This document shows, piece by piece, positions 54,281 to 54,304 of a DNA stretch of 64,000 nt (positions are counted from its first letter, which is position 1; each line of letters starts with the position of its first letter). Made by a program: the position numbers and the translations under genes. The DNA is from Escherichia coli (GTDB lineage: Bacteria > Pseudomonadota > Gammaproteobacteria > Enterobacterales > Enterobacteriaceae): the NCBI RefSeq assembly GCF_044647545.1, contig NZ_CP172818.1. The stretch is one strand, 5' to 3'. The notes beneath the pieces were generated by a model. The model saw only the letters and a program-made list of their open reading frames with translations, was not told the origin of the DNA and made no database searches.

Positions 54281-54304
54281 GCTAGTTTAGACATCCAGAC
54301 GTAT
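54281..54304 (+). promoter_or_regulatory. Tandem MetJ boxes upstream of metC
   Basis: GCTAGTTT AGACATCC AGACGTAT: three consecutive 8-mers resembling the met-box consensus AGACGTCT, about 20 nt upstream of the metC ATG. Confidence 0.6.

Follow-up and report, generated by a model that had tools for sequence, protein, structure and literature searches.

The site found upstream of metC in the 64-kb window, i.e., the whole stretch of Escherichia coli DNA that was analyzed, corresponds to the native and already characterized MetJ operator of E. coli metC, which is composed of two tandem 8-bp met boxes (positions 54289-54304) and not of three; we assign this reading a probability of about 0.93. MetJ is a ribbon-helix-helix protein that uses S-adenosylmethionine as co-repressor. 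One MetJ dimer binds each 8-bp box, and as neighboring dimers contact each other, binding requires a minimum of two adjacent boxes.

The original prediction had described three tandem met-box-like octamers, and the sequence GCTAGTTT-AGACATCC-AGACGTAT was present as quoted on the plus strand at positions 54281-54304. The regulated gene, metC, encoding cystathionine beta-lyase, extends from 54323 to 55510 on the plus strand (as annotated in RefSeq for K-12 and for a 100%-identical strain, with the end of the ORF taken from the ORF list). Its annotated and conserved start codon is the ATG at 54323-54325, giving a product of 395 aa, and a 440-aa metC ORF starting from a TTG at 54188 was discarded as an artefact of the first-start rule of the ORF lister. 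A Shine-Dalgarno-like CAGGAA (54311-54316, plus strand), read from the sequence, lies 6 nt before the ATG, and its "agg" core is kept in the alignment of orthologous regions. The last octamer is separated from the start codon by 18 nt, in keeping with the location of MetJ operators in the regulatory regions of methionine regulon genes, typically no more than about 75 bp from the start codon. The exbB gene (53337-54071, minus strand, with its coding region ending at 54071) is divergent from metC, and the intergenic region between the two genes is 251 nt long.

The octamers were scored with the MetJ information matrix and the decision rule published by Augustus and Spicer in 2011 (PMC3228920, Table 3), according to which adjacent 8-bp boxes must be in register, each scoring at least 3.145 (a quarter of the consensus score), with a total of at least 12.58. 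With this matrix, the consensus AGACGTCT itself scores 12.58. Met box 1, AGACATCC (54289-54296, plus strand), matches the consensus at 6 of 8 positions and scores 8.96; met box 2, AGACGTAT (54297-54304, plus strand), matches it at 7 of 8 positions and scores 9.96. Their sum, 18.92, is that of the top two-box site of the window, the runner-up reaching 11.64, and the published rule is passed by the pair at 54289-54304 and by no other site of the window. Scoring against a position weight matrix and shuffled controls had been proposed as a check of the original prediction, and the two-box core withstood it, since 18.92 was attained in only 3 of 300 whole-window shuffles that preserved dinucleotides, while the first octamer did not, the three-box sum of 9.49 being attained in 172 of the 300 shuffles. 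The zero-order expectation for a score of 18.92 was 0.010 in 64 kb and 4e-5 in the intergenic region. As metC belonged to the published training set, the matrix was rebuilt from the 27 other K-12 boxes, metC being excluded. With this leave-metC-out matrix, the pair scored 18.41 and again ranked first in the window, followed by a site at 12.18. The two tandem met boxes are thus real and far beyond chance. A fourth box, the next octamer in register downstream (AAAAACAG, 54305-54312), was considered and rejected with a score of -8.70.

These values are in full agreement with published data. The metC entry (b3008) of E. coli K-12 in Table S1 of PMC3228920 is "agacatccagacgtat", with two met boxes, a total score of 18.92 (mean 9.46), and a distance of 18 nt from the start codon. 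Our own calculation reproduced the score, the number of boxes, and the distance, and the 16-mer of the window is identical to this operator base for base. The same study reported a positive MetJ gel shift for the E. coli exbB-metC intergenic region, to which MetJ binds even though exbB is not MetJ-regulated in vivo, and assayed E. coli operators, including that of metC, by lacZ fusions in wild-type and delta-metJ cells. In two chemistry papers, an 18-bp fluorescent metC duplex that holds two MetJ dimers was used, and fluorescence anisotropy with this duplex gave an EC50 of MetJ of 96 nM with S-adenosylmethionine and 2900 nM without it. In binding studies, metC has been termed the shortest natural MetJ operator. 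The octamers therefore do sit where MetJ acts on metC, as had been predicted, but the count of three was contradicted by the published table (two boxes), by the binding studies (two MetJ dimers), and by our comparative data, in which the first octamer follows the pattern of an extended -10 element (see below). Comparison with other met-regulon operators had also been proposed initially. The longer MetJ operators, with four boxes (metA, metB/metJ, metF, and mmuP) or three (metE/metR, metNIQ, and metK), share with metC the AGACGTCT-type 8-bp repeats, the strict tandem register, and a position close to where a methionine gene begins, whereas metC has the minimum of two boxes, not three, both of them strong, with a mean of 9.46 per box compared to 5.0-7.8 bits in the three- and four-box operators.

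The first octamer, GCTAGTTT (54281-54288), matched only three of the eight consensus positions and scored -9.43 with the published matrix and -5.40 with the leave-metC-out matrix; 32% and 24% of all window octamers, respectively, score as well or better. Its published-matrix score lies 12.6 bits under the per-box threshold and 12.7 bits under the weakest of the 27 accepted K-12 boxes (3.24), and the T at its box position 3 is a base absent from 832 half-boxes. When its two halves were scored separately, the 5' half GCTA reached -13.87 and the 3' half GTTT +4.44, and only this 3' half resembles half a met box. Both matrices and the shuffles were thus against a three-box reading, which was rejected.

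We also analyzed the conservation of the site. A 301-nt segment over the whole exbB-metC intergenic region was 100% identical to K-12 MG1655 (NC_000913.3, 3151960-3152260), confirming that the native regulatory architecture is preserved here, as initially suggested. Of 5422 complete E. coli genomes, 4301 were 100% identical over the 76 nt around the site. In the most divergent E. coli genome sampled, changes were found in the upstream spacer (54267-54279) and near the ATG, and TGCTAGTTTAGACATCCAGACGTATAAAAACAGGAATCCC was unchanged. Beyond E. coli, we collected 120 loci of species-representative genomes with one degenerate DNA pattern for an 11-residue MetC motif. Two-box sites with scores of 11-20, placed 13-22 nt before the metC ATG, occurred in 35 Enterobacteriaceae loci from about 15 genera (Escherichia, Citrobacter, Enterobacter, Kluyvera, Lelliottia, Pluralibacter, Pseudocitrobacter, Kosakonia, Phytobacter, Pseudescherichia, Siccibacter, Cedecea, Shimwellia, Mangrovibacter, and Entomohabitans). 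In the alignment of these 35 regions, box 1 was kept as [AG]GAC[AG]TCC and box 2 was nearly invariant across genera, so that both boxes are nearly invariant while the flanking spacer varies. Among the 120 loci, no two-box site was observed at the orthologous position in Pantoea, Erwinia, Pectobacterium, Dickeya, Brenneria, Rahnella, Yersinia, Pasteurellaceae, Orbaceae, or Vibrionaceae. This patchy taxonomic spread agrees with the previous report that metC met boxes occur in only about half of Enterobacteriales. The metJ gene, which is not contained in the window, is present in 122 of 122 non-symbiotic Enterobacteriales (PMC3228920, Table 2). In Serratia spp. (loci L020, L033, L042, and L060), another pair, AAACGTCT GGATGGCT, scoring 16.59, was found 60-73 nt upstream of the metC ATG; this distance, unlike that of the Enterobacteriaceae site, suggests an independently placed operator.

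The sequence that contains the first octamer is also conserved, in a different manner. The element TGcTAGTTT (TGCTAGTTT, 54280-54288, plus strand), made of TGn and the hexamer TAGTTT (54283-54288), is the sole TGnTAnnnT on the plus strand of the intergenic region, where 0.15 would be expected, and 34 of the 35 orthologous regions have a TGnTAnnnT no more than 30 nt ahead of box 1. The TG, the TA, and the final T are retained while the "n" positions vary, with all four bases at the "n" of TGn and hexamers such as TAGTTT, TAGTCT, TAATTT, TAAGTT, and TAACGT, among others. The TG is located 9 nt before box 1 in 25 species, an E. coli-like spacing, and 15 nt before it in seven species (Cedecea, Siccibacter, Entomohabitans, and Enterobacter sp. 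R1) as a result of a 6-bp insertion, a displacement that places the element out of the 8-bp register of the met boxes. From this pattern, the first octamer is probably part of the extended -10 element of the metC promoter (TG, T-12, A-11, T-7) rather than a met box. The arrangement, with TG separated by a single base from the TAnnnT downstream of it and with a poor -35, resembles that of extended -10 (TGn) sigma-70 promoters, as read here from the sequence. A scan of 53950-54450 for generic sigma-70 promoters and for terminators returned nothing, with no canonical -35/-10 pair; an extended -10 promoter with a poor -35 would escape such a scan, whose outcome is not positive evidence for one.

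Other elements of the region were considered. An alternative -10, TATAAA (54302-54307), was rejected, as the resulting leader of about 9 nt would cut into the Shine-Dalgarno sequence and the hexamer is not kept in the Cedecea group (GGTTAAAC/GTTTAAAC). No match to a MetR site (TGAA-N5-TTCA) was seen by eye near the palindrome GAATATTC (54271-54278), and E. coli strains vary most in the stretch around it. Further upstream, an A/T-rich block, GAAAATTTTCTGCTTTATG (54229-54247), about 36-54 nt upstream of the predicted -10 hexamer, is semi-conserved across genera and could be a UP-element-like sequence or the site of another factor.

Among the alternatives to a plain two-box operator, one would assign a dual role to the first octamer. 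At the 3' end of TAGT(T/C)T, the GT(T/C)T would serve both as the -7 end of the promoter element and as a vestigial half-site on which a third dimer would dock weakly through cooperativity, making an operator of about 2.5 boxes of which the Cedecea-type three-box operator would be the fully developed form. With GTTT scoring +4.44, the upstream octamer may make a weak contribution to cooperative MetJ binding, but the scores taken together and the published stoichiometry of two dimers make this dual coding unlikely.

Slightly less probable still is a true three-box operator, in which GCTAGTTT would be a degenerate third box occupied by a third dimer through cooperativity with the box-1 dimer, placing the repressor directly on the -10 hexamer. 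The octamer lies in the exact 8-bp register, its GTTT half is a good half-box, and Enterobacter-type orthologues carry the perfect half GTCT. Moreover, three-box metC operators do exist in relatives, as the in-register upstream octamer passes the threshold in Cedecea, Entomohabitans, and Enterobacter sp. R1. These loci (L035, L045, L107, L109, and L119) have the same two strong proximal boxes and upstream TGnTA as E. coli, and, in addition, 6 bp inserted between TGnTA and box 1 that create a real third box lacking in E. coli. The third boxes of these five of the seven shifted species (TTATGTTT, 3.24; TTATATCT, 3.70; TTACGTCC, 4.25; and GTATGTTT, 4.49) overlap the -10 hexamer. However, as they stem from the insertion, with the TGnTA element upstream of them, they are not homologous to GCTAGTTT, and the whole-box score of the latter, its T at position 3, and the two boxes and two dimers of PMC3228920 and the binding studies all stand against a third box in E. 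coli.

Finally, weak met-box pairs are common, sites just passing the published rule being found in 131 of 300 shuffles of the 64 kb, but a chance resemblance of octamers forming no functional operator is highly improbable for a pair with this score, located 18 nt upstream of a methionine biosynthesis gene and kept across genera while its flanks diverge, and this reading is effectively refuted by the conservation together with the published MetJ binding data.

The two-box operator suggests the following mode of action. When S-adenosylmethionine is abundant, two co-repressor-loaded MetJ dimers bind both adjacent boxes cooperatively, which is well established for MetJ and has been demonstrated in vitro with this 16-mer. 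The boxes abut the putative extended -10 element (54280-54288), and transcription would start about 5-9 nt past the hexamer, at about 54293-54297, in which case the boxes would cover roughly -6 to +11 relative to this predicted start. Bound MetJ would then keep RNA polymerase from binding or from forming the open complex, leading to less metC transcription. This occlusion of the promoter is an inference, as no metC transcription start site was retrieved, either in the supplements of PMC4782308, PMC10301672, PMC7132871, and PMC4681348 or by full-text search.

Three observations concern neighboring genes. On the minus strand upstream of exbB, the sequence AGTAATGAGAACGACTATC (54135-54153) shares 13 of 19 positions with the 19-bp Fur-box consensus, a score of at least 13 being reached at only 21 positions of the window on both strands, and this match agrees with the iron regulation known for exbBD. 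The product of exbB (53337-54071) is named "tol-pal system-associated acyl-CoA thioesterase" by RefSeq (PGAP) in many genomes and "Ton complex subunit ExbB" in K-12, so the PGAP name looks like a mislabel. At about 61051-62507 (L124, 16152-17608), the annotation of the 100%-identical strain FDAARGOS_497 has two "hypothetical protein" genes between yqhH and ygiQ, and they may represent accessory DNA in an otherwise core genome.

The metC operator is already known and there is nothing new in its sequence. The site thus serves only as a quality check, indicating that the E. coli core genome is unmodified in this part of the window, with native MetJ control of metC intact. It also leads to a correction of the annotation: metC has a minimal two-box MetJ operator, and the octamer upstream of it is probably promoter sequence, namely an extended -10 element.
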